Origin: a bacterium
GTDB lineage: Bacteria; Zhuqueibacterota; Zhuqueibacteria; Residuimicrobiales; Krinioviventaceae
Length of the DNA stretch: 64,000 nucleotides
Direction: 5' to 3'
NCBI GenBank assembly: GCA_963693055.1
Contig: OY843751.1
Span: 5,152,001-5,216,000, forward strand
The first letter of the stretch is position 1; each line of letters starts with the position of its first letter. Shown piece after piece: positions 24,569 to 60,684 of this stretch. The notes under the pieces are model-generated. The model was given only the letters and a program-made list of their open reading frames with translations. It searched no databases and was not told the origin of the DNA. Both the position numbers and the translations under genes were made by a program.

Positions 24569-24674
24569 AATTGAATTAACCTCCATTATTAACCTTCATG
24601 ACACACTTACATTTCAATTCTTAACAGCAACATTTTTCAAATTTTATCCGAGTTTGATCACCTCCTTTATATTT

Positions 24675-29045: not shown

Positions 29046-29120
29046 TATCGTTATCCTTTAACTATAATACCCTTGAGGGAACAAAACACCCCTACAACAT
29101 TTTAAAATTTTTAGATTTTT

Positions 29121-31162: not shown

Positions 31163-32317
31163 TTATTCTTTAATCCGCCAGTGTGTTGCCTTTAACACCG
31201 TCATTTCTCTGCGTTCAGGTGCCTGGTAATATATCGTATATATGGAGCCATCATCCAGTTGGACCGATGCGGGATATCCCAGATCACTATTGTTTGCGGA
31301 TGACAAAATAAATGCATTGTCTACATCCCAGGTCGTACCATTGTCACGACTGATACAAGCGCGTTCACCATGGGGTTCTTTACGGTATCCATAGGTCACC
31401 AGCAGCCAGTCATTACTGAGACGAGTGAGATGCGGTGGATACCCCCAAATACCGGATGTGTACAGCGGGGTCCAGGTCACGCCGCCGTCAAAACTTTCGG
31501 ACTGGATCAATTCATAATGGTTAGGCTCTCCGCTGTATCGGAACATAGCTACCAGCCTGCCATCTGCCGCTTCAACCACATGCGGTTCACTAAAAGAGCC
31601 TGATCGGCTGTATTTTTCTGGAATAGGGACATAACCAATGATCTGCCAGCTTTTACCGTCATCTCTCGATTCTGCTGCAGCAATACGATGAGCTTTTGCA
31701 GGATTTGCGCTTTTTCGGTCACCTACTTTTTTATTGATTCCAACATACAACTGTCGACCATCAGTTAGCTGAACAGGACCATGCGGCGCCGTCACTTTGG
31801 AGTCGATATACTCTCCCCATGTCAATCCACCATCAGTGGAACGACGGATCCAGTTTCCCAGCCACTGTTCGCGGGTTTCATCACTGATTTTCTCGATATG
31901 ACGCTGCCAGCTCAACACACGTTCCTTTGTATAATTCTGCCATTTTTCTTCAAACTGGTAAGCAAATTCAAGCGAGGTAAACCAACTTACGATCAGGGTA
32001 TTATTACGAGTACGCATGATGCCGGCATCACGATCATCCAGTGGTGTATTGTTGATGGTAACCGGATCGGACCAGGTAGCGCCATTGTCCGTACTGGTAA
32101 TCATCTGGGTCACTCCCCAGGGACAAACATGCGAGTCACGATCTCCGGAGAAAACCACATACAGCGTACCGTCTTTTCCCTTTTCAATGGTGGGCCAGCC
32201 AATGTAACGGCCAGGTTGTTGACATATAACTTTTTCAGAAAGTATCTCTGCTTCAGGAGCAGCCATAACAATAGATACAGTAAAACAAATCAGGAACAAC
32301 AGGGTCACATTTTTCAT
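31163..32317 (-). CDS. BNR/Asp-box sialidase-like hydrolase, copy 2
   Basis: Close tandem paralogue of 29971-31128. Confidence 0.8.
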   Translation of the reverse strand: MKNVTLLFLICFTVSIVMAAPEAEILSEKVICQQPGRYIGWPTIEKGKDGTLYVVFSGDRDSHVCPWGVTQMITSTDNGATWSDPVTINNTPLDDRDAGIMRTRNNTLIVSWFTSLEFAYQFEEKWQNYTKERVLSWQRHIEKISDETREQWLGNWIRRSTDGGLTWGEYIDSKVTAPHGPVQLTDGRQLYVGINKKVGDRKSANPAKAHRIAAAESRDDGKSWQIIGYVPIPEKYSRSGSFSEPHVVEAADGRLVAMFRYSGEPNHYELIQSESFDGGVTWTPLYTSGIWGYPPHLTRLSNDWLLVTYGYRKEPHGERACISRDNGTTWDVDNAFILSSANNSDLGYPASVQLDDGSIYTIYYQAPERREMTVLKATHWRIKE

Positions 32318-42992: not shown

Positions 42993-44801
42993 TTATTTCT
43001 GATAATGCTCTTTAATGATCTCGCCCATAAAATTGGGTTTTAATGCAATACGATTGTTTTCATCCTTGTATGTAAAATTGGCGGTCTCGTAAAGTACAAA
43101 TCCATCAATACGCGGATATTTTTTCACAAGCGCAATTTCTTCCAGCTTGACCTGTTTTCTTCCTTCATCGGAAGGATAGCTGTGAAAGTCACTTTGAAAG
43201 TAAAACGGCTTGTTGGCGACATGGGTGACAGCACTAAAAATATCCAGGGCTTTTTGTAAATTCCAGGGTTGGAGCTTGAAAGAACCCCTGAATTCCAGAT
43301 CATCGGCAATTTCATTCACCCACGTTTGCCATTGCCACTCGATATTGGGCGGCAGTGAAGGTATACTGTTCCGGCTTTCAAAGCGATCGTCAGCCATGAG
43401 CAATTCAGAATGCAGATGCAGGGTCAGTTTTTTGCCATCATCCCGAATAACCGTTTTGGCTTCTTTGAGAAATTGGGTCAGGGCGTTACCATTGATATGG
43501 CTGACAGTGGTATAGTCCGTACGTCCACCAGAAACTTCAAGTACCGGTTCATTGAATCCATAATTCCAGTAATCCGGCGATTTTGTATGGTTCGCCATTC
43601 TGTAATTGATACCGTCCACGCCCCGCTCCAGACAGAATCGGGTGATATCCATCCAGTGCTCTCTCACCTCGGGATAAACGGGATTCAAATTCCCCAGCAT
43701 GTATTTCTGTTTTCCGCAGGCAACGGCAATAAATCCGTCTCTGTCTAATGTTTTGCGTTTTGTGAGTTTGTAAAACTCGTCAAAAACATAGAAATCCTGA
43801 TAATGCGCTTTCATTTTTTCAACATCATGCATCTCTTTTTTCACCTCGGGATGCTGAAAATACCGGATATATTTTTTCCGTTCTTCACCTGCCATAATCA
43901 TAATATCGCGTTCGCTGTATGTGACGGAACCACTGCCAAAAATATAAGGAATGGTTTTGCCATCCGGACCAATCAGTTCTATAATTTTCCCAATCTCATT
44001 GCTAAAATCACCCTGTTTATCAGCCAGAGTACAGCGTATTAAAATATATGTCTGGTCATCACCAAGTTCCAATCCTTCAAGATGGAGGATGCGGCATTGT
44101 TTCCATTTCGGAAATCCCTTGCGCCACTCGACAGATTCCCGAAAAGATACGGGTCCGGTGTATTCCGTGAACCTGTTATTGGTCGCGCTTGTGTATATAG
44201 TTAAATGCTCTGCTTTGACACGAGTGGGTTCATCGCTGTCTTTTATCAGGCGTATTGTTTTAACAGGGCCCTGGAATTCATAGGTCCCGGGTTTGCGCTT
44301 CAAAGACATTTCCGGGTGACTGGCAGAAAAGGGATTTGCCCAGGGAGAGATCCCACAGATATCTTTAAAAGCTACCGCTTCTTTTGGAAAAGGCATGGTA
44401 TGAGGTAAAACAGACCTGACGCCACCATCTTCAAAGAGCTTGATTTCCGCATAGAGCTCTATACCATATCTGTGCGCGGATTTCACAACCTCGGTCAGCA
44501 GATCTATTCCATAAGGATGTTTTTCGTAAAAAGACCAATAGGTGCTCACAATCCATTGATGACGGGTAACACCCAACGATGCCAGACTTTTGTGCAGATC
44601 GTCCAGCTGATTTATATCCATAAAAGAATCGTTTACCGAAACATTATCTGAATAATCCGTTGTGGCAAATAATCTCTTTAGGGTCTCGGGCTTAGCACCT
44701 GCAAATGGAGAAGAAAAGCTGTTCAAAGCCAGCGCCCCAATCCCCAATGTGGTATGTGATAAAAACGTTCTTCGGCTGATAGATGCTGATGATGTAGTCA
44801 T
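42993..44801 (-). CDS. Tat-exported unassigned TIM-barrel-like protein, paralogue 2
   Basis: SRRTF; TTDYSDN, GVTRHQW, GVDGINYRMANH, GFVLYETA. Confidence 0.78.
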   Translation of the reverse strand: MTTSSASISRRTFLSHTTLGIGALALNSFSSPFAGAKPETLKRLFATTDYSDNVSVNDSFMDINQLDDLHKSLASLGVTRHQWIVSTYWSFYEKHPYGIDLLTEVVKSAHRYGIELYAEIKLFEDGGVRSVLPHTMPFPKEAVAFKDICGISPWANPFSASHPEMSLKRKPGTYEFQGPVKTIRLIKDSDEPTRVKAEHLTIYTSATNNRFTEYTGPVSFRESVEWRKGFPKWKQCRILHLEGLELGDDQTYILIRCTLADKQGDFSNEIGKIIELIGPDGKTIPYIFGSGSVTYSERDIMIMAGEERKKYIRYFQHPEVKKEMHDVEKMKAHYQDFYVFDEFYKLTKRKTLDRDGFIAVACGKQKYMLGNLNPVYPEVREHWMDITRFCLERGVDGINYRMANHTKSPDYWNYGFNEPVLEVSGGRTDYTTVSHINGNALTQFLKEAKTVIRDDGKKLTLHLHSELLMADDRFESRNSIPSLPPNIEWQWQTWVNEIADDLEFRGSFKLQPWNLQKALDIFSAVTHVANKPFYFQSDFHSYPSDEGRKQVKLEEIALVKKYPRIDGFVLYETANFTYKDENNRIALKPNFMGEIIKEHYQK

Positions 44802-44828
44802 GGTATTTTAATCCGCTTTGATAAAATA

Positions 44829-46637
44829 TCATTTTTTCTGATAATGCTCTTTAATGATCTCGCCCATAAAATTGGGTTTCAATGCAATGCGATTGTTTTC
44901 ATCCTTGTATGTAAAATTGGCAGTCTCGTAAAGTACAAATCCATCAATACGCGGATAATTTTTCACAAGCTCAATCTCTTCCAGCTTGAGCTGTTTTCGA
45001 CCTTCATCAGTGGGATAGCTGTGAAAATCACTTTGAAAGTAAAAAGGTTTATTGGCGGCATGGGTGACAGCACTGAAAATATCCAAAGCCATTTGTAAAT
45101 TCCAGGGTTGGAGTTTGAACGAACCCCGGAATTCCAGATCATCAGCAATTTCATGTACCCAGGTTTGCCACTGCCATTCGATATTGGGCGGTAATGAAGG
45201 CAAACTGTTCTTGCTATTCTGACGATCATCCGGAAACAACATGCCCGCATGCAGGTGGAGCGTTAATCCCTTACCCCTGGCTTTAATGACGGTTTTGGCG
45301 TCCCGTAGAAATTTTGTATACGCATCACCATTGACTTTGTTGATGCTTGTGTAATCCGTCTTTCCGCCTGTTGCCTTGAGAACGGGTTCGTTATAACCAT
45401 ACTCCCAATATTCCGGAGAGCGTGTATGGTTCGCCATTCTAAAATTAATGCCATCCACGCCCCTGTCCAGACAAAAATGAACCAGCTCCATCCAGTGTTC
45501 TCTGACCTCGGGATATATGGGATTCAAATTCCCCAGCATGTATTCAGGCCTGCCGCACGCAGCGGCAATAAAGCCCTCCCGGTCCAGCGTCAAGGGCTTG
45601 GTGACTTTATAAAATTCATCAAAAGGATAGAAATCCTGAAAATGCCATTTCATCTTTTCAGGATCGCTTATTTCTTTTTGCACCTCGGGCAATTGCAGAT
45701 AACGGATCAATTGCGTTCTCATTTTATTTTTGAAAAAGACACGGGTATAATAATCAAGATCAGCCGGACCTCGGCTGAGACCATAGGGAATGACTTTGCC
45801 ATCAGCGCCAATAATCTCTAATATTTTTCCTTTCTCGTTTGTAAAGTCACCCTTGCTATCCGCCATGGAACTGCGTATCAAAATATAGCGATGGTCATTA
45901 GGGATTTCAAGACCTTCAAAGTTTAATATTCTAGATTGCTTCCATTTGGGGAATCCCTTGCGCCACTCTACCGATTCCCGAAAAGAAACCGGACCGGTAT
46001 ACTCTGTAAACCGGTTATTGGTTGCACTGGTCCAGATTGATAAATGTTCTGCTTTTAAACGCGTATGACTATCGTCCCTCTTGACGATCCGGATTGCTTT
46101 AACCGGGAGTTTAAACTCTCCGGAACCCGGCCTGCGCTTCATACTCATTTCCGGATGTCGGGCCGCAAAAGGGCGCGCCAAAAGATCAATGCCTTTCATA
46201 TTTTTTAAGGCAACAGCACCTTTGGGGAACGGCATGGTGAGTGGTAAAAGCGCGCCAAACCCACCGTCTTCAAAGGTTTTGATCTCTCCATACAATTCAA
46301 TACCATGCTTGTGAGCAGATTTGACGACCTCGGCTAACAGATCAAAGTTGTGGGGATAGTTTTCGTAAATCGTCCAGATCGTATCCACAATCCATTGGTG
46401 GCGTGTCACACCAAGGGACGCCAGACATTCGTGAAACTGGTCCAATTGCTCCAAATCCATAAAACTTTCACCAAACAAATTATCTGTATAATCGGTTGTT
46501 GCAAATAATTTTTTTACAGTTTCGGGTTTGGAACTTTTGAATGGAGCGGCAATACTATTTAATGATAGTGCCCCCATTCCCAACAGGGTTTGTGACACAA
46601 ATGTTCTGCGACTGATAGATGCTGATGTTTTTGTCAT
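44829..46637 (-). CDS. Tat-exported unassigned TIM-barrel-like protein, paralogue 3
   Basis: SRRTF; same motifs; C-terminus nearly identical to paralogue 2. Confidence 0.78.
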   Translation of the reverse strand: MTKTSASISRRTFVSQTLLGMGALSLNSIAAPFKSSKPETVKKLFATTDYTDNLFGESFMDLEQLDQFHECLASLGVTRHQWIVDTIWTIYENYPHNFDLLAEVVKSAHKHGIELYGEIKTFEDGGFGALLPLTMPFPKGAVALKNMKGIDLLARPFAARHPEMSMKRRPGSGEFKLPVKAIRIVKRDDSHTRLKAEHLSIWTSATNNRFTEYTGPVSFRESVEWRKGFPKWKQSRILNFEGLEIPNDHRYILIRSSMADSKGDFTNEKGKILEIIGADGKVIPYGLSRGPADLDYYTRVFFKNKMRTQLIRYLQLPEVQKEISDPEKMKWHFQDFYPFDEFYKVTKPLTLDREGFIAAACGRPEYMLGNLNPIYPEVREHWMELVHFCLDRGVDGINFRMANHTRSPEYWEYGYNEPVLKATGGKTDYTSINKVNGDAYTKFLRDAKTVIKARGKGLTLHLHAGMLFPDDRQNSKNSLPSLPPNIEWQWQTWVHEIADDLEFRGSFKLQPWNLQMALDIFSAVTHAANKPFYFQSDFHSYPTDEGRKQLKLEEIELVKNYPRIDGFVLYETANFTYKDENNRIALKPNFMGEIIKEHYQKK

Positions 46638-46663
46638 AATACACTATTCCTATTTGAAAAACA

Positions 46664-48484
46664 TCATTTTTTCAGATAATTCTCTTTAATGATTTCATCC
46701 ATAAAATCGGGTTTTAATGCAATGCGGTTATTCTCATTTTTGTATGTAAAATTTGCAGTTTCATAAAGCACGAATCCGTCAATTCCCGGATGATTTTTCA
46801 CAAGCTCAATCTCTTCCAGTTTAACCAGTTCTCGTCCTTTGTCAGAGGGATAACTGTGAAAATCACTTTGATAATAGAATGGCTTATTTGCCGCTTTCGT
46901 AACATGAGTGATAATATCCAATACTTTTTCCACATTCCAGGGACGCAGTTTGAAAGCACCACGAAACTCGATGTCATCAGCAATCTCGTTAATCCAGGTT
47001 TCCCATTGCCATTCGATGTTGGGAGGGATGGAAGGAACTCGCCTGCCGCCCCGTTCATCCGGCCAGAACATGTCGCCATGTAAATGCAGGGTTAATCCTT
47101 TATCCCGGCTTTTTATCAAGGATTTTGCTTCCCGCAGGAATTGGGTAAAAGCGTTACCATTTACCTTGTTAATGCTGGCATAATCGGTTTTTCCACCGGT
47201 CGCTTTCAGCGTGGGTTCATTAAAACCATACTCCCAATATTCCGGAGATCGATTATGGTTCGACATTCTAAAATTGATACCATCCACACCCCTATCCAGA
47301 CAAAACCGCACCAACTTTAGCCAGTGCTCTCTTACTTCCGGATAAACAGGATTCATATTACCCAGCTTATATTCCGGTTTACCGCAGGCAATCGCCAAAA
47401 ATCCTTGCTCATCCAGAGTTACCGTGTTTGTTATTTTATAGTATTCATCAAAGGGATAAAAATCCTGAAAATGTTTTTGCATTTTTCGAGTATCTTTGAT
47501 CTCCTGTTGAACCTCCGGTAATTGCAGGTACCGTATCAGCTGCGTCCGCATTTTATTCTGAAAATAGACCCGGTTATAATAGTCAAAATCCTGTGCTGGG
47601 CCATTGCTCAAAGTATAAGGTATGGTTTGCCCGTCCGCACCGACAAGTTCAAGGATCTTTCCCTTTTCGTTGGTTAAGTCACCCTCTTTATCAGCCAGAG
47701 AACTGCGAATTAAAATGTATCGGTGGTCCTTTGGGATTTTCAGGCCTTCAAGATGAAGGATACGGCATTGCTTCCATTTGGGGAAACCTTTACGCCATTC
47801 CACAGTCTCGCGAAAGGATACCGGACCGTTGTATTTTTCAAACTGGTTGTTGGTTGCGCTGGTCCAGATGGATAAATGCTCTGCTTTGATGCGGGTGGGG
47901 CTATCATCCCTTTTAATAATGCGGATTGTCTTTACGGGGCCTTTGAACGCAAAAGTGCCGGGTCGCCGTTTCATGCTCATCTCCGGATGCCTGGCAGCAA
48001 AAGGACGCGCAAAAAGATCAATTCCCCGCAGATCTTTGAATGCAACCGCATCCTGGGGGAACGGCATAGTGAGCGGAAAAAGCGGACCGCTTCCACCGTC
48101 TTCAAAGGGAATGATCTCTGCATAAAATTCAATGCCATGGCGATGAGCGGATTTAACTGCTTCTTCCAGCAAGTCAAAGTTATGGGGATATTTATCGTAT
48201 ATTGACCAAATGGTGTCCACAATCCATTGGTGGCGGGTCACGCCCAGGGAAGCCAGACTTTTGTGGAACTGGTCCAACTGCTCAATATCCATAAAGGTCT
48301 CGCCAAACAGGTTGTCGGTATAATCGGTTGTGGCAAACAATTTCTTGATGGTTTCCGGCTTGTTTTGCGCATGCGCAGTTTTAACAAACGGATGAGTTGC
48401 TGTACTCATTGCAGCAAAACCGGTCCCATAAATTGATTTTGTGATAAAAGACCTTCTTGAAATTGGATTATTGCCCCTTTTCAT
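46664..48484 (-). CDS. Tat-exported unassigned TIM-barrel-like protein, paralogue 4
   Basis: SRRSF; GVDGINFRMSNH, GFVLYETA. Confidence 0.78.
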   Translation of the reverse strand: MKRGNNPISRRSFITKSIYGTGFAAMSTATHPFVKTAHAQNKPETIKKLFATTDYTDNLFGETFMDIEQLDQFHKSLASLGVTRHQWIVDTIWSIYDKYPHNFDLLEEAVKSAHRHGIEFYAEIIPFEDGGSGPLFPLTMPFPQDAVAFKDLRGIDLFARPFAARHPEMSMKRRPGTFAFKGPVKTIRIIKRDDSPTRIKAEHLSIWTSATNNQFEKYNGPVSFRETVEWRKGFPKWKQCRILHLEGLKIPKDHRYILIRSSLADKEGDLTNEKGKILELVGADGQTIPYTLSNGPAQDFDYYNRVYFQNKMRTQLIRYLQLPEVQQEIKDTRKMQKHFQDFYPFDEYYKITNTVTLDEQGFLAIACGKPEYKLGNMNPVYPEVREHWLKLVRFCLDRGVDGINFRMSNHNRSPEYWEYGFNEPTLKATGGKTDYASINKVNGNAFTQFLREAKSLIKSRDKGLTLHLHGDMFWPDERGGRRVPSIPPNIEWQWETWINEIADDIEFRGAFKLRPWNVEKVLDIITHVTKAANKPFYYQSDFHSYPSDKGRELVKLEEIELVKNHPGIDGFVLYETANFTYKNENNRIALKPDFMDEIIKENYLKK

Positions 48485-50301
48485 TCAACAGCTCCCTGTT
48501 TAAATTGCGATCCTATTATACTCTTGATATCAGAACTCCCCTCAATGTTGCCCGTTTTATTCAAACGGGTATATGCCGCTGTTTCGTATAGACAAAATCC
48601 GGCTATTTCAGGATATTTTTGCATCACTTGAAGATCTTTACTCAAACGGTAATTGGGCCCATCAAAAGTGGTTTCATGAAAATGATCTTGAAAATACAGA
48701 GCTTTATCAGCCTGTTGAGTGACTGAAAGAATGGTTTCCAAAACTTGTTTTGCATGCCAGGGACGGAGAGTGTACACGCCCCGAAATTCCAAATCGTCAG
48801 CAATTTCGTTCACCCAGGTTTCCCACTGCCAATCAAAATTGGGTGGCAGATAGCTTAAACGCCAATGCCTGTCATCCGGGGCCAGCATTTGGGCAAATAT
48901 ATGTACTGTAATCGCTTTCCCCCTGCTTTTGATCAACTCCCGCGCTTCCCGCAAAAATTGTGTATATGCATCGCCATTAATTCGTTTTATGGTTGGATAA
49001 TCCGTTTTACCGCTGGCAGCGTTAAGAACCGGATCGTTAAATCCGTATTCCCAAGCCTCGGGATCCTGACTATGGTTTGCTGCTCTAAAATTAACTCCGT
49101 CTACTCCCCTGTCCAGGCAATAACGAGTCATCTCCAACCAGTGCTCCCTCACCTCTGCATATATGGGATGAAGGTTTCCCAATAAATATTCCGGTTTACC
49201 ACACACAACTGCAATGAACCCGTCTTTATCAAGAGATTTAGAGTCTGTAACTTTATAACGGTCGTAATTGTAGAAATTTTGATAATGCTTTCGCATCTTT
49301 TCAGGATCATTCAATTCTTTCTTGAACTCGGGTAAAGCAAAATAAGGTATCAGATCATAATCATTTATCTGCATTAGATTATAAAATCTTGCCTCATCTG
49401 TTTCAAGAGTAACGGGACCCGTGCTGTGTGTGCAAGGTATCGCTTTTCCATCGGGTCCTTCCAGTTCTATGATTTTTGAAATTTCATTACTGAAATTTCC
49501 ATTTTCGTCAAGAGAACATTTTATCAAAATGTGCCGATGATTCGCTGGTAATTCCAGGTTTTCCAGATTCAATATCCGGCATTTTCTTCCTTTTGGGAAT
49601 CCGATGCGCCATTCAACAGATTCACGAAAGGAAAGTGGCCCCTTGTACGGCTCAAACTCGTTATTGGTAGGGCTGGTAAATAAAGAGAGATGTTCAGCCT
49701 GGATACCTGTTGGCTTGTCATCTTTTTTAACAAGACGAATTGATGAAACCGGTCCACGGAATTCAAAACTTCCGGGTCTGCGTTTCAAATTCATCTCCAG
49801 GTTCTGAGCTGCAAAAGAACTTGCATAGGGTTTAATTCCGCGTATATCCTGAAACGCTTGTGCGTTTTTGGGAAAGGGTAACGAGTGTGGTAATACCGGT
49901 CTGCATCCGCTCTCTTCAAAGGGTTTAATAATCGCATAAAATTCGATACCATGTGCATGTGCCGATTTAACAGCTTCTTTTAACAGATCAAACCCATGCG
50001 GATAATTGTCATAATACGTCCAATTTGTATCAAACATCCATTGATGACGTGTAACACCCAGCGACGCAAGGTAGCTATGTAACTGATCCAGTTGGGCTTT
50101 GTCCATAAAGGATTTATTTACTAAAACATTGTCCAAGTAGTCTGTTGTAGCAAGCAGCTTTTTATTTGTTTTAAACTTGAATTTTTCTATGCTTGAATTC
50201 AGAAACGGATCACTTGCATAGCCCAAAACTGATGATCCTAATGTGATTAATGTTTGCGCCAGAAATTCTCTTCTATTGATATGAAAAGATTTTTTTATCA
50301 T
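48481..50301 (-). CDS. Tat-exported unassigned TIM-barrel-like protein, paralogue 5
   Basis: NRREF; GVDGVNFRAANH, GFCLYETA; 4-nt overlap with the next gene. Confidence 0.78.
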   Translation of the reverse strand: MIKKSFHINRREFLAQTLITLGSSVLGYASDPFLNSSIEKFKFKTNKKLLATTDYLDNVLVNKSFMDKAQLDQLHSYLASLGVTRHQWMFDTNWTYYDNYPHGFDLLKEAVKSAHAHGIEFYAIIKPFEESGCRPVLPHSLPFPKNAQAFQDIRGIKPYASSFAAQNLEMNLKRRPGSFEFRGPVSSIRLVKKDDKPTGIQAEHLSLFTSPTNNEFEPYKGPLSFRESVEWRIGFPKGRKCRILNLENLELPANHRHILIKCSLDENGNFSNEISKIIELEGPDGKAIPCTHSTGPVTLETDEARFYNLMQINDYDLIPYFALPEFKKELNDPEKMRKHYQNFYNYDRYKVTDSKSLDKDGFIAVVCGKPEYLLGNLHPIYAEVREHWLEMTRYCLDRGVDGVNFRAANHSQDPEAWEYGFNDPVLNAASGKTDYPTIKRINGDAYTQFLREARELIKSRGKAITVHIFAQMLAPDDRHWRLSYLPPNFDWQWETWVNEIADDLEFRGVYTLRPWHAKQVLETILSVTQQADKALYFQDHFHETTFDGPNYRLSKDLQVMQKYPEIAGFCLYETAAYTRLNKTGNIEGSSDIKSIIGSQFKQGAVE

Positions 50302-50314
50302 TTTTTACTTTTCC

Positions 50315-52129
50315 TTAAATATCATCTGTTTGAAAAAAATGTGATTTAACAAGTGCTTCCATATTGGGTGAAAGTACAATTCGCCCCTCTTTATTCATTT
50401 TTGTGATCAAGTGTGTTTCATACAAACAAAATCCACCCAGATCAGGATAGTTGCTGATCAAATCCAACTCTTCCCGGGTACGATTATTGGGGCCATCAAA
50501 ACTAATCTCATGGAATTTACCTTGAAAATACAACGGTTTGTTTGATTTACGGGTTACGTCTAGCATTGTCTCTAAAACCTGTTTTACATGCCAGGGCTGC
50601 AAAGTAAACACGCCTCTGAATTCCAGATCATCGGCAATTTCACGTACCCAGGTTTCCCACTGCCATTCAAAATTGGTGGGTATATAACTCAACCGTCTGT
50701 GCCTGTCATCCGGGGCCAGCATTTGGGCAAAGATATGTACGGTAATGGACTTGCCCCTGCTCTTGATGAGCTCCCGAGCTTCCCGCAGAAATTGGGTATA
50801 GGCATTGCCATTAATACGTTTTATGGTGGGATAATCTGTTTTACCACCAGCGGCTTTGATTACCGGTTCATTAAAACCATACTCCCATGATTCCGGGGAC
50901 TGGGTATGATTGGCAACCCTGTAATTAATGCCGTCCACGTCCCGGTCCAGACAAAAACGCGTTAAATCCAGCCAGTGTTTTCTCACCTCGGGGTAAATGG
51001 GATTCAAATTACCAAACATGTATTCCGGCTTGCCACATACTGCCGCCACAAAACCATCTTTGTCCAGAGTTTTGGTATCTGTTACATTATAGCGATCATA
51101 ATTATAAAAATCCTTGTAATGCTCCTGCATCTTTTGGGCATCATTGATTTCCCGTTTTACTTGTGGCATTTCTGCGTATCGCACCATGTTGTGCCGGGTT
51201 AGCCATGATTTGTAAAAGATGTTATTGTGCGTTTCCAGCGAAACCGGTCCTGTGCTCATGGTGTTTGGAATGATTTCACCATCCGGACCCACCAGCTCAA
51301 GGATTCTTCCATATTCATTTTTAAAATCAGCATCATTATCAGCCAGAGAGCATTTTATGAGGATATGGCGATGATCCTTTGGGATCTGTAAATCCTCAAG
51401 ATTGAGGATGCGGCATTGCCTCCATTTGGGAAATCCGCTGCGCCATTCAACAGACTCCCGAAACGAGACAGGCCCCTTGTATTCCACATATCCATTGTTT
51501 TCAGGACTGGTATAGATTGCAAGATGTTCGGCTTTGATACGTGTAGCGCTATCATCGCGTTTCACAAGACGAATGCTGCTAACCGGTCCCTTGTACTCAA
51601 AAGTACCGGGACGGCGTTTTAAGCACATTTCCACATGTTTTGCGGCAAAGGGACTGGCAAGGGGTTTGATTCCACAGATATCTTTATAGGCAACCGCACC
51701 CTCGGGGAATGGCAACGTGTGCGGCAGAACCGGACGGAATCCGCATTCTTCAAATGGCTTGATCAACGCGTAAAATTCCAGTCCATGTTGATGCGCGGAT
51801 TCAACAGCCTCGGCCAAGATATCAATACCCAAAGGATGGTTCTCATGAATAGACCAGACCGTATAAACAATCCACTGGTGACGCGTTACACCCAATTTCA
51901 CAAGGCTTTTATGCAGATCGTCCAGTTGGGCCCTGTCCATAAAACAATCATTATAGATAATATTACCCACATATTCACTTGTTGCCAACAGCTTTTTAGA
52001 GTTTGAATTTAATGGTTTTGAAAGTGTGGTTTTGACAAAGGGATTGATTGCACTGATTGCCAATGCCCCCATTCCGCTCAATGCCAGATTATGAAATGTA
52101 CGTCTGTTTATTTTTGTGGATGTACTCAT
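50315..52129 (-). CDS. Tat-exported unassigned TIM-barrel-like protein, paralogue 6
   Basis: NRRTF; DVDGINYRVANH, GFCLYETH. Confidence 0.78.
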   Translation of the reverse strand: MSTSTKINRRTFHNLALSGMGALAISAINPFVKTTLSKPLNSNSKKLLATSEYVGNIIYNDCFMDRAQLDDLHKSLVKLGVTRHQWIVYTVWSIHENHPLGIDILAEAVESAHQHGLEFYALIKPFEECGFRPVLPHTLPFPEGAVAYKDICGIKPLASPFAAKHVEMCLKRRPGTFEYKGPVSSIRLVKRDDSATRIKAEHLAIYTSPENNGYVEYKGPVSFRESVEWRSGFPKWRQCRILNLEDLQIPKDHRHILIKCSLADNDADFKNEYGRILELVGPDGEIIPNTMSTGPVSLETHNNIFYKSWLTRHNMVRYAEMPQVKREINDAQKMQEHYKDFYNYDRYNVTDTKTLDKDGFVAAVCGKPEYMFGNLNPIYPEVRKHWLDLTRFCLDRDVDGINYRVANHTQSPESWEYGFNEPVIKAAGGKTDYPTIKRINGNAYTQFLREARELIKSRGKSITVHIFAQMLAPDDRHRRLSYIPTNFEWQWETWVREIADDLEFRGVFTLQPWHVKQVLETMLDVTRKSNKPLYFQGKFHEISFDGPNNRTREELDLISNYPDLGGFCLYETHLITKMNKEGRIVLSPNMEALVKSHFFQTDDI

Positions 52130-52273: not shown

Positions 52274-53029
52274 TCAATTTTGCCCATTTTCTTCATTTTC
52301 ATCTTTTATGATTTGAAAAACTATTTTCACAGTCTTTACAATTTTAATTGTTTCCACAAAGAAAGAAGCTCCATTGGTGGAAGATAATCCTCCTCCCATA
52401 ACTGCACTATTGGCAAAACTTGAATATTGGGAAAGTGTCACTGGGATATTATCATCAATTTCTTCCACATTAATGGCTTTAATATGTTTAATATTAAGAT
52501 TTTTCGATATCAATTCTGCTTTTTCTTTTGCGTTTCGAACTGCAGTCTCTAAAGTATTTAACTTTATTTGTTTTATGTTCTTGAGATCAAATTTCATATC
52601 AGACATTTCATGCGGCTCAAAATTAGCAACTGTAATTATTGCTTTTTCCAATAATGCAAAATCCTGTATGTTGACTTTAACATCTATGCAAGCTACATAA
52701 TCACGATTAGACGACAAGAATGCTTTATTATCATAATTTTCCGAACTGTAAAAACGAGAGGTTTCAAGGTCTTTATCTTTTAATCCTATTTTAAAAAGCG
52801 ACTCTGATATTAATGCAACTTTATCTTTGGCATTTTTTACAGCATTATTCAAGTTTTTGCCATATCCATTAATCTGGAAAGTAAAATATGCAAAATCCGC
52901 CGGTGTTTCTGTAATACAAGTACCTGTTACTGCTATGATATTTTTAGGAATGTGGTCTTTGCTTTCTTTTGAAAGGGATATGGATGAAAATGACATTAAA
53001 ATAATGATAATGAAGAATAGTTTTTTCAT
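52274..53029 (-). CDS. SIMPL (DUF541) domain exported protein
   Basis: Start MKKLFF with signal peptide; IAVTG....PAD, AVRNAKEKAELI. Confidence 0.75.
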   Translation of the reverse strand: MKKLFFIIIILMSFSSISLSKESKDHIPKNIIAVTGTCITETPADFAYFTFQINGYGKNLNNAVKNAKDKVALISESLFKIGLKDKDLETSRFYSSENYDNKAFLSSNRDYVACIDVKVNIQDFALLEKAIITVANFEPHEMSDMKFDLKNIKQIKLNTLETAVRNAKEKAELISKNLNIKHIKAINVEEIDDNIPVTLSQYSSFANSAVMGGGLSSTNGASFFVETIKIVKTVKIVFQIIKDENEENGQN

Positions 53030-53290
53030 AAATATTTTCCTCAAAAAACTGTAATTCACTCGATTGATGGTTATTTTATATTTCTAAAAACGTTTTGCAT
53101 GCAAAACTGGTAATAAATTCTTTAAGAAAACTTTTTACCCATTCAACAGATTAACTATGAATAGGTTTTTCATCCTATCACTCTTTTTTTTTTACACAAA
53201 GTTCGCCGAGTTCGCAAAGAATTTTATACTTTCTCTGCGTCCCTACAGCCTCTGCGTTAAAAAAAACATATTTATTAAACCCCTTTTATC

Positions 53291-54844
53291 CTAAAGCTTA
53301 AATATCTTGACTGTTTTTTCTGATCCTTTCTTCACATCCGTATACACATCCACAACCGTCTTGTCCTTTGTCTGGATGATCTGGTTTACCTTGCCGCCGT
53401 CTACCCGGTATTCGCCCTTTTTCATCACAAATCTTACTTTACATCCCGGCAGGTCTACCGGAAAGCGGTTGGTTATCACGGCCTCATTTTTTGCAACATT
53501 GCCATCATTCGAGTTTTTAAATTCAAGCGTCAGGTTAAGCTTTAATTTTCTGTAATTATCCACAGGATTTTCACAAAACCGCAGAGGTTCGGTAAATGTA
53601 AACTTGCTGCCGTCAATATAAAAAATGCGAAAAAATCCCAAATTCTCTTGCCAGTTTTTAATCTCACCGCTTCGGCAGACCGTCCCGGACCGGATACTCA
53701 GGGTCGGCGTTGCACCCACATACTCATGAAAGGGCGTATGATTGTGTCCGTTTAAAAGTATACCAATCCTGTGCTTGTCCATAAAAGTTGTATCAATACG
53801 ATCAGGACGGTGCTGTGCCATGATGCGCAAAGCACCATCGCCGTTTTCCGCAAGGAACGATTCCAAAACCTGTCCCTGCAATCCGGACATGGGTGACGCA
53901 TCCGGAATATCATTCACAGGATCACCCAGAAAATCATCCGCTGCTAAAACACGGGTATTACCGTATGAGAATCCATACACGCGCAGACCGCACAAGTCGT
54001 TCCACTGACTTGACATGGCCATGTAGTCTTTTCTGGAAACACCATAAGAGTCGTGGTTGCCGGGTAAACTGAAAATCGGAGCATTAAATCCGTGAACGCC
54101 TGAAAACCCTTTTGCCCCGGTATAATAATTTCTGTACTTTTCTTCAACCAACGGACGTAAATCCGCATCGTACAGTTTATCTCCGCCCCATCCGGTAGAA
54201 TCCGCATTCACCCGGGTATAGTGCATTATAACATCACCGGTATTGATAATAAAATCCGGTGCAATAATATTGGCCAAATCCACAAACTGATCCAGCAGTT
54301 CCAGTTCTTTAGCATAACCATCATCACCATCACCCACCCAGGCACGGGTAACATGCGTATCGGATATGTGTATAAAACAATGTGACGGTTTAAACTCGCG
54401 CACAACCTTGACGGATTTACGGGAAACGTGAGTCTCGCCATTGCTGTATATTAACAAATCGTACAACTCTTCTGGTGCGGATTTGGGTACACTGAGCCAT
54501 ATTTTGTTGTTTACATCCTTTTGAGTGAATGTATCGTAAACAAACCGATCAACACTGACCGAATCAATCATCAGGAGAACGCGATTGTACGGACCTGTTA
54601 AAACGACAGAGTCAATATCCGCAAAAGTGATATTGTTATACAATGCTGAAAATTCACCTCCGCACTCGGCAAATGCGGGTGCAGCCCGCCATGGATATAC
54701 GATATCTCCCGCAAACGAAACACTGTTAAAAGCTAACAACAAAATAAACAAAAAACCAATAATTCTATGCTTTATGATCACTTTCAAAACGACCCCTTTC
54801 ATTACTATATAGTTAACAGGAGTGGTTTTTCCGGAATAGGACAC
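53291..54844 (-). CDS. Exported calcineurin-like metallophosphoesterase
   Basis: SDTH, TGD, PGNHD and GHNH motifs; true start probably downstream of 54844. Confidence 0.85.
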   Translation of the reverse strand: MSYSGKTTPVNYIVMKGVVLKVIIKHRIIGFLFILLLAFNSVSFAGDIVYPWRAAPAFAECGGEFSALYNNITFADIDSVVLTGPYNRVLLMIDSVSVDRFVYDTFTQKDVNNKIWLSVPKSAPEELYDLLIYSNGETHVSRKSVKVVREFKPSHCFIHISDTHVTRAWVGDGDDGYAKELELLDQFVDLANIIAPDFIINTGDVIMHYTRVNADSTGWGGDKLYDADLRPLVEEKYRNYYTGAKGFSGVHGFNAPIFSLPGNHDSYGVSRKDYMAMSSQWNDLCGLRVYGFSYGNTRVLAADDFLGDPVNDIPDASPMSGLQGQVLESFLAENGDGALRIMAQHRPDRIDTTFMDKHRIGILLNGHNHTPFHEYVGATPTLSIRSGTVCRSGEIKNWQENLGFFRIFYIDGSKFTFTEPLRFCENPVDNYRKLKLNLTLEFKNSNDGNVAKNEAVITNRFPVDLPGCKVRFVMKKGEYRVDGGKVNQIIQTKDKTVVDVYTDVKKGSEKTVKIFKL

Positions 54845-55262: not shown

Positions 55263-56705
55263 TCAGACTTTTTTGGTTTTCCAGCGATTTCTGCGGAACC
55301 ACAACGCCATGATAATCCCCTTGAGGCCGGTTGTAGAGCCAATAGCCCACCAAACTCCCTCGCTGCCCATTCCCAGTGTATGTGCTAATAGATATGCCAG
55401 GGGTATTCTTGCCCAGGTAATAGGCACAGAAACCAGCATAGGCGGCAGCGAATTGCCGGCACCGCTGAACGCACCCTCAAAAACGATCTCGAGCCCCAAA
55501 AAAATCTCGAAAAAAGCAATAATCTTTAAATAGCTGGTCCCTTCCGCAACTACCACGGGATCACTGATAAAAAACAAAATGATCCACTTGCCGCCAAAAT
55601 AAAATGCAACGGAGACAAACACCAGCATGATTGACACATATAATATGGACAACCAGGCGGATTTCTCGGCCCGGGCAGGTTTACCGGCACCGAGGTTTTG
55701 TCCCACCAGTGTAGAAGCAGCTACGGATACACCCACCGCGGCAAAATATGCCAGCCCCTCAATCCGGTGTCCCAGGCCCAGTGCGGCCAACGGACCGGGA
55801 CCAAAACCGGTAATAACACGCGTCAGCAGCATATAACTGATGCTAAACATCACCCCGCTAAACCCAATTGGCGCACCAATCCGGGTGATCCGCCAGATTA
55901 AATTGGGATTAATAAAGGACTTTAGCGACCAGTCAATATGGATATGCACGTCCCGTTTTTGCAATAGCGTAATTCCCCATACCAATGCCACGATATGGCT
56001 GATAACGGTAGCCAGCGCCGCACCACCTGCTTCCATACGGGGAAACGGTCCCACACCTAAAATCAACAAGGGATCGAGCACGACATTTAACGTCAACGCA
56101 GCGGTTATCAATTTGAGCGGAGTTTTGGTATCGCCCATGCCCCGAAAAGCCGCGTCCATGGCAAAAACCATAAATATGGTAATCATGCCTGAAAAGATAT
56201 AGAACAGATATTCACGTGCATGCCTGAGCACCTCACCCTCAAGGCCCATGTATGTGTAAATCCAGTCTTCTGTCAAAAATCCAATGACTCCAAAACCGAT
56301 TGCCAGAGCAGCCGCCATAATGAGACATTGCCCCACAATTCTGCTAGCCAGTGCAGTATCGCGTGCGCCCACAAATCGTGCTACCATGGCATTTCCACCG
56401 GTTTCTACCAGCGTTGCTACGGATTGCAGCGTCCACAAAATAAAAGAAGCCGCACTCACTCCGGCAAGCGCATCTGCACCCAACTTGCCCACAAACCAGA
56501 CATCCACCAGGTTGAACACCATTAAAAACACCATAGACGTAAACGCCGGCCACGCAAGTTTGACAATAGCGTTACTGATGGGTATTCGGGTCAATTCCGG
56601 ACCTTCGTCCACTTGAGGTAAAACCGTAGCGCATTCGGGAGCAAAATTCCAGTCCAAAGGAGGTTCACTTTGTGGATTATTTTTTGTATATTCACTCATA
56701 GACAT
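55263..56705 (-). CDS. MATE-family efflux transporter
   Basis: LVDVWFVGKLG, FRGMGDTKTP, LDPLLI, GQNLGAG. Confidence 0.92.
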   Translation of the reverse strand: MSMSEYTKNNPQSEPPLDWNFAPECATVLPQVDEGPELTRIPISNAIVKLAWPAFTSMVFLMVFNLVDVWFVGKLGADALAGVSAASFILWTLQSVATLVETGGNAMVARFVGARDTALASRIVGQCLIMAAALAIGFGVIGFLTEDWIYTYMGLEGEVLRHAREYLFYIFSGMITIFMVFAMDAAFRGMGDTKTPLKLITAALTLNVVLDPLLILGVGPFPRMEAGGAALATVISHIVALVWGITLLQKRDVHIHIDWSLKSFINPNLIWRITRIGAPIGFSGVMFSISYMLLTRVITGFGPGPLAALGLGHRIEGLAYFAAVGVSVAASTLVGQNLGAGKPARAEKSAWLSILYVSIMLVFVSVAFYFGGKWIILFFISDPVVVAEGTSYLKIIAFFEIFLGLEIVFEGAFSGAGNSLPPMLVSVPITWARIPLAYLLAHTLGMGSEGVWWAIGSTTGLKGIIMALWFRRNRWKTKKV

Positions 56706-56743
56706 TTAAATTATGGATTTATAATTAAAAAGCAACGATTATC

Positions 56744-57424
56744 ATGCATGTTATTGACCTGACACAGCCTTTGAATAAAGACATACCCATTTGGCCCGGT
56801 GATCCCAAATTCAGCATGACCATTGTATCCAATCCCGAAAAGGATGGTTATACACTGAACGAGTTGAAAATCGGAGAGCATACAGGTACGCACATTGGTG
56901 CGCCTTCTCATTTTATTCCGTCAGGGCCATCCATCGATCAGGTTCTACCGGATAATCTCATTGTACCGGCCGTAAAGATACCGGTTATACCTCAATGTAA
57001 ACGAAATCCTGACTATCTTGTTTCAAAAGAGGATATTGTAAACTGGGAAAATTCAAATCAAAAAATTTCTGCCAAAACCGTTGTATTATTTGAAACCAGC
57101 TGGAGTCAGTATTGGCAGGAACCGGCAAAGTATCTGGGCAATAACGCGTCGGGTATGCACTTTCCGGGGATTACAGAATCTGCGATGCAGCACCTGATCA
57201 CCCGCAACATAACCGGAGTGGGAATTGATACTGCCGGCATAGACGGCGGTCAATCACAAACATTTGCGGTAAATCTTTTGGCTGCAAAATATAAAATCTA
57301 TCATCTTGAAAACCTTACCCATCTTGAAAAGCTGACAAAAGCCGGCATAACACTGTTCATTGGCGCATTACCCCTGCACAATGGAAGCGGATCGCCCTGC
57401 AGGGTTTTGGCTACAATTTCTTGA
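56744..57424 (+). CDS. Cyclase/kynurenine-formamidase-family protein
   Basis: EHTGTHIGAPSHF, GIDT, LENL, GSGSPCR. Confidence 0.88.
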   Translation: MHVIDLTQPLNKDIPIWPGDPKFSMTIVSNPEKDGYTLNELKIGEHTGTHIGAPSHFIPSGPSIDQVLPDNLIVPAVKIPVIPQCKRNPDYLVSKEDIVNWENSNQKISAKTVVLFETSWSQYWQEPAKYLGNNASGMHFPGITESAMQHLITRNITGVGIDTAGIDGGQSQTFAVNLLAAKYKIYHLENLTHLEKLTKAGITLFIGALPLHNGSGSPCRVLATIS

Positions 57425-58787
57425 CCTTCCATTTACCCCTGGCAAAGATCGACCAGATAATCATTGCATTTACAAAATTAGAAATCACAACCGCAATCCA
57501 TACACCGTTAACGCCCACATCCCAAATTCTGGGGACAATAAATGACAAGGGAACAGCAATACCTAACAAAGAAAAAGCGGTTATAATCATGGGCCACAGG
57601 GTTTCACCCGCACCGCTTAATCCACGATTAAAGATTACTGCCATGGCAATAAACGGATAAGAGAGTACCATAATACGCAAATAATTCACCCCATTATGGA
57701 TCACCTCTGCATTACCGGTAAACAATTTAAATATACCTGCCGCATGCGTAAAATAGATGATACCGGCGGTTGCCATGATTGAGACAAAGAAAACAAGCGC
57801 CAGCCAGGTACTTTTCACAGCACGGTCCGGTTCTCCTGCTCCCAGATTCTGTCCCACCAGGGTTGCCGTTGCCGCGGCAAGGCCAAATCCCGGCATCATG
57901 ACCAGCATATCAACCCGGATACCAATACCAAAAGCGGCGAGCGCTACAGTCCCATACCCGGCAACAATAGCCATCATAATAATACCGGTTGCACTGCGTA
58001 ACCCCATTTGCAGCGATCCGGGAAACCCGATCCTGGCGATACGTCTCACCAGGTTCCAGTCAATTTTATAAGATTCCCATTTGATATGGAGATGGGTCTT
58101 TTTAACAATCAGGAACAGAATAGCTATGACCATACCAACTGTACGGGCAAGGGTTGTTGCCCAGGCAGCGCCTGCCACCTCTAACCGGGGAAAAGGTCCC
58201 AATCCAAAAATCAATAACGGATCCATGATTGCATTCAACAGAACCGCTACCAGCATGATCCACATGGCGGTTTTGGCGTCACCCACTGCCTGAAAAATGG
58301 ATGCGGACAAAAAGGACAACGCCATGGGAATGGATCCCGCAAACAGGATACGCATATAGACTGTAGCCATATTATGTACGTCTTGTTCCACTCCAAATAT
58401 ATTGATGAGATACGGTGCAACAAAATAACCGATAATTGAGAGGAACAGACCCAAATAAGCACCAAAAATCATGGACTGTAACGCTACATGGTTCACATTA
58501 TCAAAATCTTTTGCACCAAAACTACGGGAAACCATTGCGCCGGTTGCTATACTGATCCCCAATATCAACGCAAAAAGGATCATTAAAATATTACCTACAA
58601 TCGAAATAGCGGCAACCGGGGCAGCACCCAGTCGTCCCACAAACATCATGTCCACAATATTAAAAACCGTCTGCAAAGCATTGGTTGCCATCATGGGGAT
58701 GGCCAATATCCAAAGATTTTTTACAATACTGCCCTGCGTCAGATCTCTACGATTTTTATTCAATGATATATCCTGTAATTTTGACAA
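57411..58787 (-). CDS. MATE-family efflux transporter
   Basis: DLTQGSI, IVDMMFVGRLG, MDPLLIFG, GQNLGAG. Confidence 0.92.
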   Translation of the reverse strand: MSKLQDISLNKNRRDLTQGSIVKNLWILAIPMMATNALQTVFNIVDMMFVGRLGAAPVAAISIVGNILMILFALILGISIATGAMVSRSFGAKDFDNVNHVALQSMIFGAYLGLFLSIIGYFVAPYLINIFGVEQDVHNMATVYMRILFAGSIPMALSFLSASIFQAVGDAKTAMWIMLVAVLLNAIMDPLLIFGLGPFPRLEVAGAAWATTLARTVGMVIAILFLIVKKTHLHIKWESYKIDWNLVRRIARIGFPGSLQMGLRSATGIIMMAIVAGYGTVALAAFGIGIRVDMLVMMPGFGLAAATATLVGQNLGAGEPDRAVKSTWLALVFFVSIMATAGIIYFTHAAGIFKLFTGNAEVIHNGVNYLRIMVLSYPFIAMAVIFNRGLSGAGETLWPMIITAFSLLGIAVPLSFIVPRIWDVGVNGVWIAVVISNFVNAMIIWSIFARGKWKVKKL

Positions 58788-59051: not shown

Positions 59052-59867
59052 TCAAGTTTTCTTTTGTATTAAATCTGAATGATAATGATAAACCAGATCA
59101 CGGTATTGTAATATTGTACTCCGTCCTAATCCGGTTATTCTTACCATTTCCATTAAATTAAAACCTTTTTCCAATAATGATTTTACGTTCTTGTAACTCT
59201 TTAAATACCGACTCGTTGATTCAATTGTGTGATTTGTAATCCGGGCGATATCCGGTTCGGGATATCCCTGCTCGTACAAATCTATAATTGCGGCTTTATG
59301 CGTCGGCTTACTGCCCTGATCCAGCATCATTCCTTTAGTCGGCAATATATCATCATGCGTTTCATGATAAATTGTCATATACCGACCAATAGTGTTTAAT
59401 GAGCGATTCAACAATACACTGAGTTCTGCACCTGTCAACCAGCCGCCCTGTTCTGCCGCACTCTTGCATAACCGCGCCATTACTTTAATATCCCGTTCTG
59501 TTTGTTTTTCATAATTAGCACTGCCATCTTTTGGGGGATAAGAATAATGGCTTTTGATACGATTGTCAATATCCGCATCTGTTACCAACGGTAGCACAAC
59601 TGTCTGAACCTCATAATCTTCCGCTTTTGTGCCATAGCTTGGCTTTCGGTTTGTCGCTTTGGTTGTCCGCCAGATAATCTGACCAAAACTTTTCTTTTCC
59701 AGCTCTGGATAAAATTCATTTTGCAATGCGACAATATCTTCCGCAATCATCCGGATGACTTTGTGGCTTCCCAGCATTTTATAATTTTCTTCCAGTAATC
59801 GAATAATCGCATTTTGAAAGCTACGCTTAGCTATTGATTCATAACGATTTAAAGGCTTAGTCTTCAT
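59052..59867 (-). CDS. DUF1670-like protein B
   Basis: RLCKSAAEQGGWLTGAELS, LPTKG..LDQG..PTHK..II.LYEQG, NHTIESTSRY. Confidence 0.8.
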   Translation of the reverse strand: MKTKPLNRYESIAKRSFQNAIIRLLEENYKMLGSHKVIRMIAEDIVALQNEFYPELEKKSFGQIIWRTTKATNRKPSYGTKAEDYEVQTVVLPLVTDADIDNRIKSHYSYPPKDGSANYEKQTERDIKVMARLCKSAAEQGGWLTGAELSVLLNRSLNTIGRYMTIYHETHDDILPTKGMMLDQGSKPTHKAAIIDLYEQGYPEPDIARITNHTIESTSRYLKSYKNVKSLLEKGFNLMEMVRITGLGRSTILQYRDLVYHYHSDLIQKKT

Positions 59868-60684
59868 CGATCCCCTCCTTGGTTTGTTTTTTTTTCGAGG
59901 GGTATAACACCTTTAATTGCTCCAATAACTCTACATAGATCGGCGGCCATTTGTCACCCTGTTTATGATGCTCAAAAATATCCAGGTACTCACGGGTCAA
60001 ACGCTCACTTTGGCCTAATAACCGACTGATCTCTTTGATATCCTGCATACCATGATTCAGTAATAACAACAGCCTGCCAAAGCTGCACACATATCGTTTT
60101 ATTGAAAACGCGCTATGACGACTTTTACGAATAATTGCATCGTATGTGTCTCCCTGCAAATACAGTTCAATAATGTGGCTTTTGTGTGACAAGCTCCGAC
60201 CGATGTCATGGTCTGTTCCGCGCGTGTGAATAAAGTTGCCATCAGTCTGCAAAGACTTTATATCCTGGCGTACAGTGCGGCTCGTAACCTGGAGGATCCG
60301 GGCCAAATCCTCTTGTGTCAAAGAACCTTCCTGATCCCAGGCTTCTTCGGTCAATCGTAAGACCTTTAACTGGCGCAGTGCCTTGGGACCGCTTTCTTTT
60401 AATACATTTAAATCTTCTACACCGGCATCCAGTGTTAACTCTACTTCTTTCAATTCCTGCTCACCCAGGGGCTTGCCATGTTTTGCCTTGGTGGATGCGC
60501 AGATATATTTTATTTTACCAACTGTCTGGGGAACCTCGCCAAATAAACACTGCTTGGCTAAATCCAATATCCCTTTACTTTCTGCCGGTGATAATTCAAA
60601 TTCTTTTCGTAAAGAATTGATGAATACTTGCTCGGGTGTTTTTTCTAATATCCTGTCATACAAACTACTACGAGTATTGTACAT
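59857..60684 (-). CDS. DUF1670-like protein A
   Basis: RLTEEAWDQEGSLTQEDLARIL, TRG..HDIGRSLSHK, RHSAFSIKRY; GGAGG RBS; overlaps gene B by 11 nt. Confidence 0.8.
   Translation of the reverse strand: MYNTRSSLYDRILEKTPEQVFINSLRKEFELSPAESKGILDLAKQCLFGEVPQTVGKIKYICASTKAKHGKPLGEQELKEVELTLDAGVEDLNVLKESGPKALRQLKVLRLTEEAWDQEGSLTQEDLARILQVTSRTVRQDIKSLQTDGNFIHTRGTDHDIGRSLSHKSHIIELYLQGDTYDAIIRKSRHSAFSIKRYVCSFGRLLLLLNHGMQDIKEISRLLGQSERLTREYLDIFEHHKQGDKWPPIYVELLEQLKVLYPSKKKQTKEGIDED

Follow-up and report, generated by a model that had tools for sequence, protein, structure and literature searches.

A family of predicted GHL10-type barrel proteins with an invariant Arg-His pair, often encoded beside phosphoesterases

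What could be the role of six related bacterial genes, five of them in tandem, whose products were left without any assigned family? The question is raised by a stretch of 64,000 nucleotides (the window) of contig OY843751.1, positions 5,152,001 to 5,216,000, in a 6.5 Mb genome of the Zhuqueibacterota. All six genes are on the reverse strand. The array covers positions 42993–52129 and is read in the order P0005 (50315–52129, 604 amino acids), P0004 (48481–50301, 606), P0003 (46664–48484, 606), P0002 (44829–46637, 602) and P0001 (42993–44801, 602); adjacent open reading frames (ORFs) are separated by 13–27 bases or overlap by 4. The sixth gene, P0006 (19316–21163, 615 amino acids), is found at the end of a TonB-receptor locus. 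The five-gene tandem and the sixth copy had been recognized in an initial annotation of the sequence; the paralogues are 46–73% identical in pairs, and the five motifs which it quoted match all six proteins. A tblastn search of the whole genome finds these six copies only. The genes are intact and under purifying selection, with dN/dS values of 0.06–0.14 in five pairs. None of the six proteins has any Pfam or NCBIfam family above cut-off, and the source names returned for ten relatives which we looked up were all 'hypothetical protein': the family is conserved and indeed unannotated. A search of the Protein Data Bank (PDB) with single sequences gave only weak matches to glycoside hydrolase family 13 (GH13), none of them full-length. 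As to the role, the sequences lead us to prefer, a little short of an even chance, periplasmic inverting glycoside hydrolases for phosphorylated glycans, which would work with neighbouring phosphoesterases.

We will start with the fold. The AlphaFold2 model of mature P0005 has high confidence scores (pLDDT 96.6, pTM 0.94); its eight predicted barrel strands form a complete TIM barrel, which ends at helix 8 with no C-terminal beta-sandwich. The top match in a wide structural search is Cwp19/GHL10 (PDB 5OQ2; Z 26.4, root mean square deviation (rmsd) 3.4 over 312), followed by the hydrolase domain of BpsB/PgaB (Z 21.4 for 6AU1, 19.7 for 4F9D), alpha-L-fucosidase iso2 (6TVK, 20.5) and GH156 (6RZD, 20.0). 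With Foldseek the Cwp19 target has a template modelling (TM) score of 0.66–0.68 and the top row is SusG (GH13); no good full-length match to a solved enzyme was found in these structural searches of the PDB. The family profile also matches Cwp19 (E 3.5e-7), and a language-model search gives GHL10 clusters at 0.85–0.87, which is a lead only. The curated cut-off of PF02638 (27.9 bits) is passed by none of the six paralogues and by 3 of 57 distinct relatives (28.5–35.2 bits). The paralogues are thus likely to have the GHL10-type (beta/alpha)8 barrel which the initial annotation had proposed; neither a full-length match to a characterised family nor a non-TIM fold was seen in the Pfam, NCBIfam, PDB and structure searches. 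The large central insert also noted there is found at about residues 125–375 of P0005 (51005–51757), between strand 3 and helix 3. It has a beta-sandwich and a helical part, and is modelled alone with pLDDT 95.1. Its fold search returns only generic beta-sandwiches (best Z 5.2).

The next step concerns the pocket. Among 1.84 billion cluster representatives (50% identity) there are at least 441 homologous clusters at E <= 0.001, 292 at 1e-10 and 86 at 1e-30; our later analysis is based on the best 150 of the 441. In addition, contigs from GTDB gave 51 loci with family genes, many of them from Prolixibacteraceae, others from further Bacteroidota, KSB1 and PVC-group records. The counts that follow come from an alignment of 150 rows (the six window proteins, 123 of the 150 representatives and 21 locus proteins; 24 representatives outside 450–920 amino acids and three more were excluded, the latter for a size limit), with the residue numbers of P0005. 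Conserved polar residues are found at or just after the strand ends of the model. Arg404 and His408, after strand 4 (codons at 50906–50920), are present in 150/150 rows. The Arg and His of the invariant Arg-Asn-His group described initially are therefore confirmed, whereas Asn407 is found in only 96/150. Strand 3 ends with Lys/Arg124 (146/147) and Glu/Asp127 (141/147; codons at 51749–51760), strand 6 with Arg/Lys505 (142/150; 50615–50617) and strand 8 with Tyr570-Glu571 (147 and 146 of 149; 50417–50422). Strand 1 ends with position 52 (51974–51976), the proposed general base, which is Asp in 134/137; His465 (126/150), Asp55 (118/139) and Trp86 (138/145) are also conserved. The full six-residue set is present in 123 of 136 complete rows. 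Arg404 and His408 would form a cationic pocket with Lys124, His465 and Arg/Lys505, beside Asp52 and Tyr570-Glu571; this is inferred from strand position in the model. An anionic ligand, as suggested in the initial annotation, is likely.

In the profile alignment Arg404 falls on Asp195 of Cwp19, so that an Arg does replace the first Asp after strand 4, as had been noted; position 405 (mostly Val/Ile) falls on Asp196 and the Glu127 position on Arg132. Tyr570 aligns with the strand-8 aromatic residue which in Cwp19 is accompanied by a cis-peptide. Some paralogues depart from the consensus. P0005 has a variant pocket with Glu52, Gly55, Tyr89 and His573, which is common to members of loci L001 and L012; its recurrence in L012 suggests that it is a maintained subtype. 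P0003 has Ile at the position of Lys124, the sole case in the 61 sequences of its clade. Such changes, together with the loss of the Cwp19 Asp pair, would be tolerated by a non-catalytic periplasmic binder of anionic oligosaccharides built on a dead glycosidase. We regard a binder as the least probable of the explanations considered here: the polar set is strictly invariant down to about 22–25% identity, a pattern seen more often in catalytic proteins, a DUF4838 domain is joined to one member, and members with no twin-arginine translocation (Tat) signal are common.

A stronger competitor comes from GH156. The exo-sialidase EnvSia156 has Asp14 as base, His134 as acid and a carboxylate clamp of Arg129, Arg202 and Asn346 (PMC6811678). 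By alignment through a GH156-like protein of the same genome, Lys124 corresponds to Arg129 and Glu127 to Asp132; the position of His134 is 129, mostly Gly/Ala, that of Arg202 is mostly Asn407, and Asn346 corresponds to Glu571 by strand register. Asp52 would fall on Asp14 provided that no gap interrupts the first nine residues of the structural alignment. The paralogues might then be inverting hydrolases of carboxylated sugars (Kdo, sialic-type ulosonic or uronic acids), in which Lys124 and Arg404 would hold the carboxylate, with Asp52 as base and His408 as acid, while the phosphatases would merely share a substrate such as the lipopolysaccharide (LPS) core. The rank of GH156 among the structural neighbours and the register of Lys124 and Glu127 agree with this, as do BNR genes (present in the window, beside distant members and in 8/51 loci) and a sodium:solute transporter with a NanM-like domain in loci L037 and L044. 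We nevertheless find it unlikely: three GH156 residues (His134, Arg202, Asn346) are replaced, a Glu at the Asn346 position fits badly beside a carboxylate, and direct adjacency to seven phosphoesterase families is left unexplained. Since the defining residues of both groups fail, the proteins are best filed as a new family of the GH156/GHL10 fold group. A separate GH156-related protein with a twin-arginine start is encoded at about 677.7–679.0 kb of G000:C1, in the genome of the window (L053:901–2175; E 1e-14 to 6RZD), and keeps the positions of Arg129, Asp132, His134 and Arg202.

The gene neighbourhood brings us to phosphate. The 51 loci and the window together gave 556 ORFs, which we clustered; Pfam was searched with 44 cluster representatives and 73 of 85 singletons. 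Eight clusters are phosphoesterases: GDPD (13 loci), two calcineurin-like kinds (11 and 9), a metallo-beta-lactamase fold (11), beta-propeller phytase (7), purple acid phosphatase (7), PHP (4) and type I phosphodiesterase (4); the metallo-beta-lactamase and PHP clusters are counted by fold. At least one of them is present in 31/51 loci and at least two kinds in 21/51; 30/51 remain if the lactamase-fold and phosphodiesterase clusters are left out. Random 15 kb segments of the same genome have 9.1% and 1.2%, respectively, and 10 of the 53 TonB-receptor hits of that genome have a phosphoesterase. The immediate neighbour on the same strand is a phosphoesterase in 28/50 loci, from seven families. 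This is a strong pattern and not a p-value, because the loci are related and the profiles were built from them. Other frequent neighbours are SusC/TonB receptors (19/51) and GH92 (17/51). The initial annotation had pointed to uronate, sulfated and sialylated glycans; the gene context points more to phosphate. Beside the distant members (73 proteins scanned in 20 genome regions) we find BNR, GH29, GH78-like, GH123-like, DUF4838 and PcRGLX-like genes. A glycan role is therefore family-wide, and only the clade with Tat-like signals, described below, shows a clear link to phosphate.

Three arrangements recur: a receptor followed by two or three family genes, a phytase and a metallophosphoesterase; a GH92-rich type (17 loci), with a family gene amid phosphoesterases; and a receptor-BNR type, to which the P0006 locus is similar. 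In G171 and G105 the only beta-propeller phytase of each genome lies directly 3' of family genes. Membranihabitans maritimus (G171; L025, L038, L121, L122) has adjacent phosphoesterase-rich SusC/SusD loci with four family genes in total. The first arrangement, whose core has no glycosidase above the Pfam cut-off, unassigned propellers aside, would agree with a barrel that had itself turned into a phosphoesterase: His408 (or His465) would form a phospho-enzyme, Arg and Lys would bind the phosphate, and the paralogues would differ in the position which they attack on inositol or sugar phosphates. The invariant Arg and His with two more basic residues would suit it. It seems quite improbable to us, since the top structural matches are all glycan enzymes, the strand-8 aromatic residue of glycosidases is retained and the distant members are found among glycosidases, not phosphatases. 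In four loci (L028, L030, L034, L038) there are YhhN (lysoplasmalogenase-like) genes, three times with GDPD, which are a hint of a lipid-linked substrate.

The GH92 neighbours were themselves considered as phosphodiester cutters. Loss of the GH92 acid Glu is a feature of the phosphodiester-cutting enzyme CcMan5. This Glu is kept in 21/21 of the co-occurring GH92s, so they look like ordinary glycosidases and the idea was rejected on this one marker. A different GH92 locus of the same genome, with no member of the paralogue family, lies at 1.899–1.946 Mb of G000:C1 (L106, L107, L123; also L136–L138). Two phosphoesterases are encoded there along with four GH92 enzymes, a GmhA-like isomerase which has no second close copy in the genome, a fusion of an RfaE-like kinase with a HAD-like domain, an epimerase, a ROK kinase and a transporter. 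The locus may be a catabolic pathway for heptose of the LPS core, with the GH92s as heptosidases. The kinase fusion recurs with GH92 and an epimerase in Prolixibacteraceae and is present in 93/251 genomes.

The inverting hydrolysis of phosphorylated glycans which we prefer can now be described in steps. The sugar would sit on Trp86, Asp52 and Tyr570-Glu571, and Asp52 would activate a water molecule for a single-step (inverting) attack, like Asp14 in GH156. A phosphate at or beside the cut bond would be held by Lys124, Arg404 and Arg505, and for this reason the strand-4 acid would be absent; His408 could be the proton donor for the leaving group. The phosphate exposed in this way would then be removed by a phosphatase encoded nearby. 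Candidate targets are sugar-phosphate linkages in the cell envelope of microbes, where they are part of glycans such as the LPS core, glycolipid anchors and capsules; inositol-phosphate glycosides are the other candidate. The paralogues would differ in the sugar or the phosphate position that they recognize. The GHL10 barrel group has already given a mechanistic surprise, the inverting GH156 sialidases; here the same pocket would be rewired again. If such enzymes cut phosphorylated glycans, they would show how bacteria dismantle phosphate-decorated envelope polymers, linking carbon and phosphorus turnover, and could be put to use in the trimming of LPS cores, glycolipid anchors or capsules.

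Several observations weigh against this proposal, which draws on sequence, context and prediction. Arg404 could form a buried salt bridge with Glu127, reversing the charges of Cwp19 (Asp195, Arg132; PMC5765458). The profile alignment left strand 1 unaligned, so that the equivalence of Asp52 and Asp14 depends on the start of one structural alignment. The 51 loci come from related genomes and are not independent, and the control profiles share their origin. No phosphoesterase is found at the P0006 locus, where there are BNR genes, and the phytase is distant from the family genes in three of the five genomes (G103, G095 and G000, that of the window). Among the 73 proteins near distant members there is one Pfam phosphatase match (HAD). 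Finally, the co-occurrence with heptose catabolism is weak (13/23 versus 80/228, p 0.07) and is a lead only.

A pectin link had been suggested by the GH28-like gene directly upstream of P0006 (21189–22757, reverse strand). The adjacency noted in the initial annotation is real, and a conserved partnership is not: GH28 is found in 2/51 loci and is missing from the corresponding place in a close relative, so we rejected the link. The same annotation had considered a lyase. A polysaccharide lyase or eliminase on uronate glycans would use the Arg to neutralise the carboxylate and a His or Tyr to abstract the C5 proton. Lyases use Arg, His, Asn and Tyr, and lyase-like genes are present in 10/51 loci. 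Cwp19 has been described as a lytic transglycosylase (PMC6016235). Apart from these general points we found nothing in favour of a lyase, and its chance appears very small: no polysaccharide lyase is among the top 50 structural matches, and both the variable Asn407 and the rarity of GH28 speak against it.

The family is patchy in its occurrence. It is found in 10/167 genomes of the phylum of the window, 14/301 of the phylum of a Lentisphaerae genome, 1/301 of a Bacteroidota sample (the centre genome only) and 23/251 of the taxonomic family of Gaoshiqia, with unequal E-value thresholds in these searches. Strains with RefSeq proteins are Membranihabitans maritimus C281 (four copies) and Gaoshiqia hydrogeniformans Z1-71 (one copy). 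Long fusion forms (1596–4555 amino acids) were absent among 4998 candidates, which is weak evidence, and Pfam detects no fused catalytic domain in the 57 distinct relatives, mostly longer ones, with only partial GHL10 matches. In locus L091 (2006–6322) the family domain is fused to DUF4838 in a protein of 1439 amino acids, and in L090 and L094, too, family genes have DUF4838 genes next to them. The literature gave no description of the family, most subscription papers being outside the scope of the search; four accession numbers and the name 'Membranihabitans maritimus' matched no papers.

Export is another variable feature. All six paralogues have an RR motif and a hydrophobic stretch at the N-terminus by pattern; the Tat profile TIGR01409 stays below cut-off, with E 0.03–0.06 for two of them. 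A twin-arginine start is present in 52/61 sequences of the clade that holds the six, and in 0/125 distant full-length representatives. The Tat export assigned initially would thus apply to the window proteins and not to the whole family. Many distant members may be cytoplasmic, which together with the cationic pocket could fit a phosphorylase, with inorganic phosphate held by the Arg/Lys cluster as the nucleophile and a sugar-1-phosphate released. We find this highly unlikely: the window copies have Tat-like signals and lie beside exported phosphatases which would undo the product, several distant members have hydrophobic N-termini, and the twin-arginine pattern covers Tat signals only. In 5 of 12 multi-copy loci (L016:8089, L021:8319, L039:8317, L041:8288, L006:157) the first copy has no signal and the second bears a Tat signal; four of the five signal-less copies overlap the upstream gene, with no room for a signal. 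Joint (piggy-back) export of such pairs as a hetero-oligomer would be a possible reason for this arrangement. The hydrolase that we prefer can be extended to a bolder picture, rather doubtful as a whole: a new TIM-barrel class which would cut sugar-phosphate linkages by an Arg/Lys/His clamp instead of an acid. Such a class would stand at the centre of a kind of import-and-degradation locus not described before, recycling phosphorylated envelope glycans for carbon and phosphorus, and its tandem paralogues would be variants of different specificity, which might assemble with each other and be exported jointly.

The history of the array is more complex than one recent tandem expansion. A tree of 78 sequences (quick mode, SH-aLRT) places the six paralogues in three supported clades: P0001–P0003; P0004 and P0005 with a gene of Prolixibacteraceae; and P0006. 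The close relative L001 has three genes in its array. The third (L001:10001–11821) is chimeric: its initial 150 aligned bases match P0003 (0.91) and the bases after them P0002 (0.83–0.94), and its downstream flank is that found downstream of P0001. The simplest reading of these sequences is a gene loss by recombination between paralogues; because L001 looks like such a contraction, the longer array probably predates the split from this relative. The DNA of the 3' end of P0001 is 83–96% identical to that of P0002, and gene conversion after duplication in the genome of the window may be an alternative. In the receptor locus of the relative the corresponding gene is only 68% identical to P0006, with flanks of 85–88% and no GH28.

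The remaining genes of the window can be described briefly. Upstream of the array, on the same strand, is a calcineurin-like metallophosphoesterase (53291–54844) with homologues in 11/51 loci; between them there is a SIMPL (DUF541) gene (52274–53059), absent at that place in L001. The P0006 locus, all on the reverse strand, contains a secreted protein with a FlgD-type C-terminal domain (22865–24586), which comes after the receptor in related loci, the TonB-dependent receptor (24675–27917), whose family precedes family members in other genomes, and a FecR anti-sigma and extracytoplasmic function (ECF) sigma factor pair (27972–29684), upstream of P0006 with the receptor. Then come two tandem BNR-repeat beta-propellers (29971–31128 and 31163–32317), whose nearest relative of solved structure, Dfer_1899 (5HX0, E 4e-16), is itself uncharacterised. 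A scan for promoters and terminators gave nothing usable. Elsewhere we find Mutator-family and DDE transposase genes (4614–5840 and 8365–9336), two MatE transporter genes (55263–58787) with a cyclase-family match between them on the opposite strand, two tandem DUF1670 helix-turn-helix genes (59052–60684) and a large secreted protein with cohesin, PKD, VWA and FlgD-type domains (60790–63927).

How does the family compare with known systems? GH13 enzymes have an Asp nucleophile after strand 4 and an insertion after strand 3. Neopullulanase and SusG share with the paralogues a weak sequence match around strand 4 (E 0.04), but SusG superposes poorly (TM 0.3, rmsd about 17) and the GH13 nucleophile position is Arg in 150/150. 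Cwp19/GHL10 (PF02638) has the same barrel, the P.VR and DG motifs and the strand-8 aromatic residue. It differs in that Asp195/Asp196 become Arg404/Val405 and Arg132 becomes Glu127, and the paralogues add the invariant His408 and the 250-residue insert; the setting of Cwp19 is the cell wall, that of the paralogues import-and-degradation loci. Asp196 is the likely catalytic residue of Cwp19 and corresponds to the strand-4 Asp of PgaB (PMC5765458). PgaB/BpsB and 6TVK share the barrel at 8–14% identity, and the PgaB Asp position is mostly Val/Ile here. GH156 EnvSia156 has the same type of barrel, a basic residue ending strand 3 and probably the Asp ending strand 1, and it employs Arg to bind an anion, together with an Asp/His pair (PMC6811678); it differs by the three residues that the family has not kept, by its C-terminal beta-sandwich and by having no large insert after strand 3. 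CcMan5 is a functional analogue of the proposed reaction with an unrelated fold: two papers describe it as a GH92 glycosidase which cuts a mannose phosphodiester (PMC5930347, PMC4576951). The closest parallel in gene organization is found in the PusCD loci of Flavobacterium, where SusC/SusD-type transporters are clustered with phosphoesterases and a phytase (PMC8115612). They are described there without carbohydrate-active enzymes, whereas the loci of the paralogue family also hold GH92 and other glycosidases.

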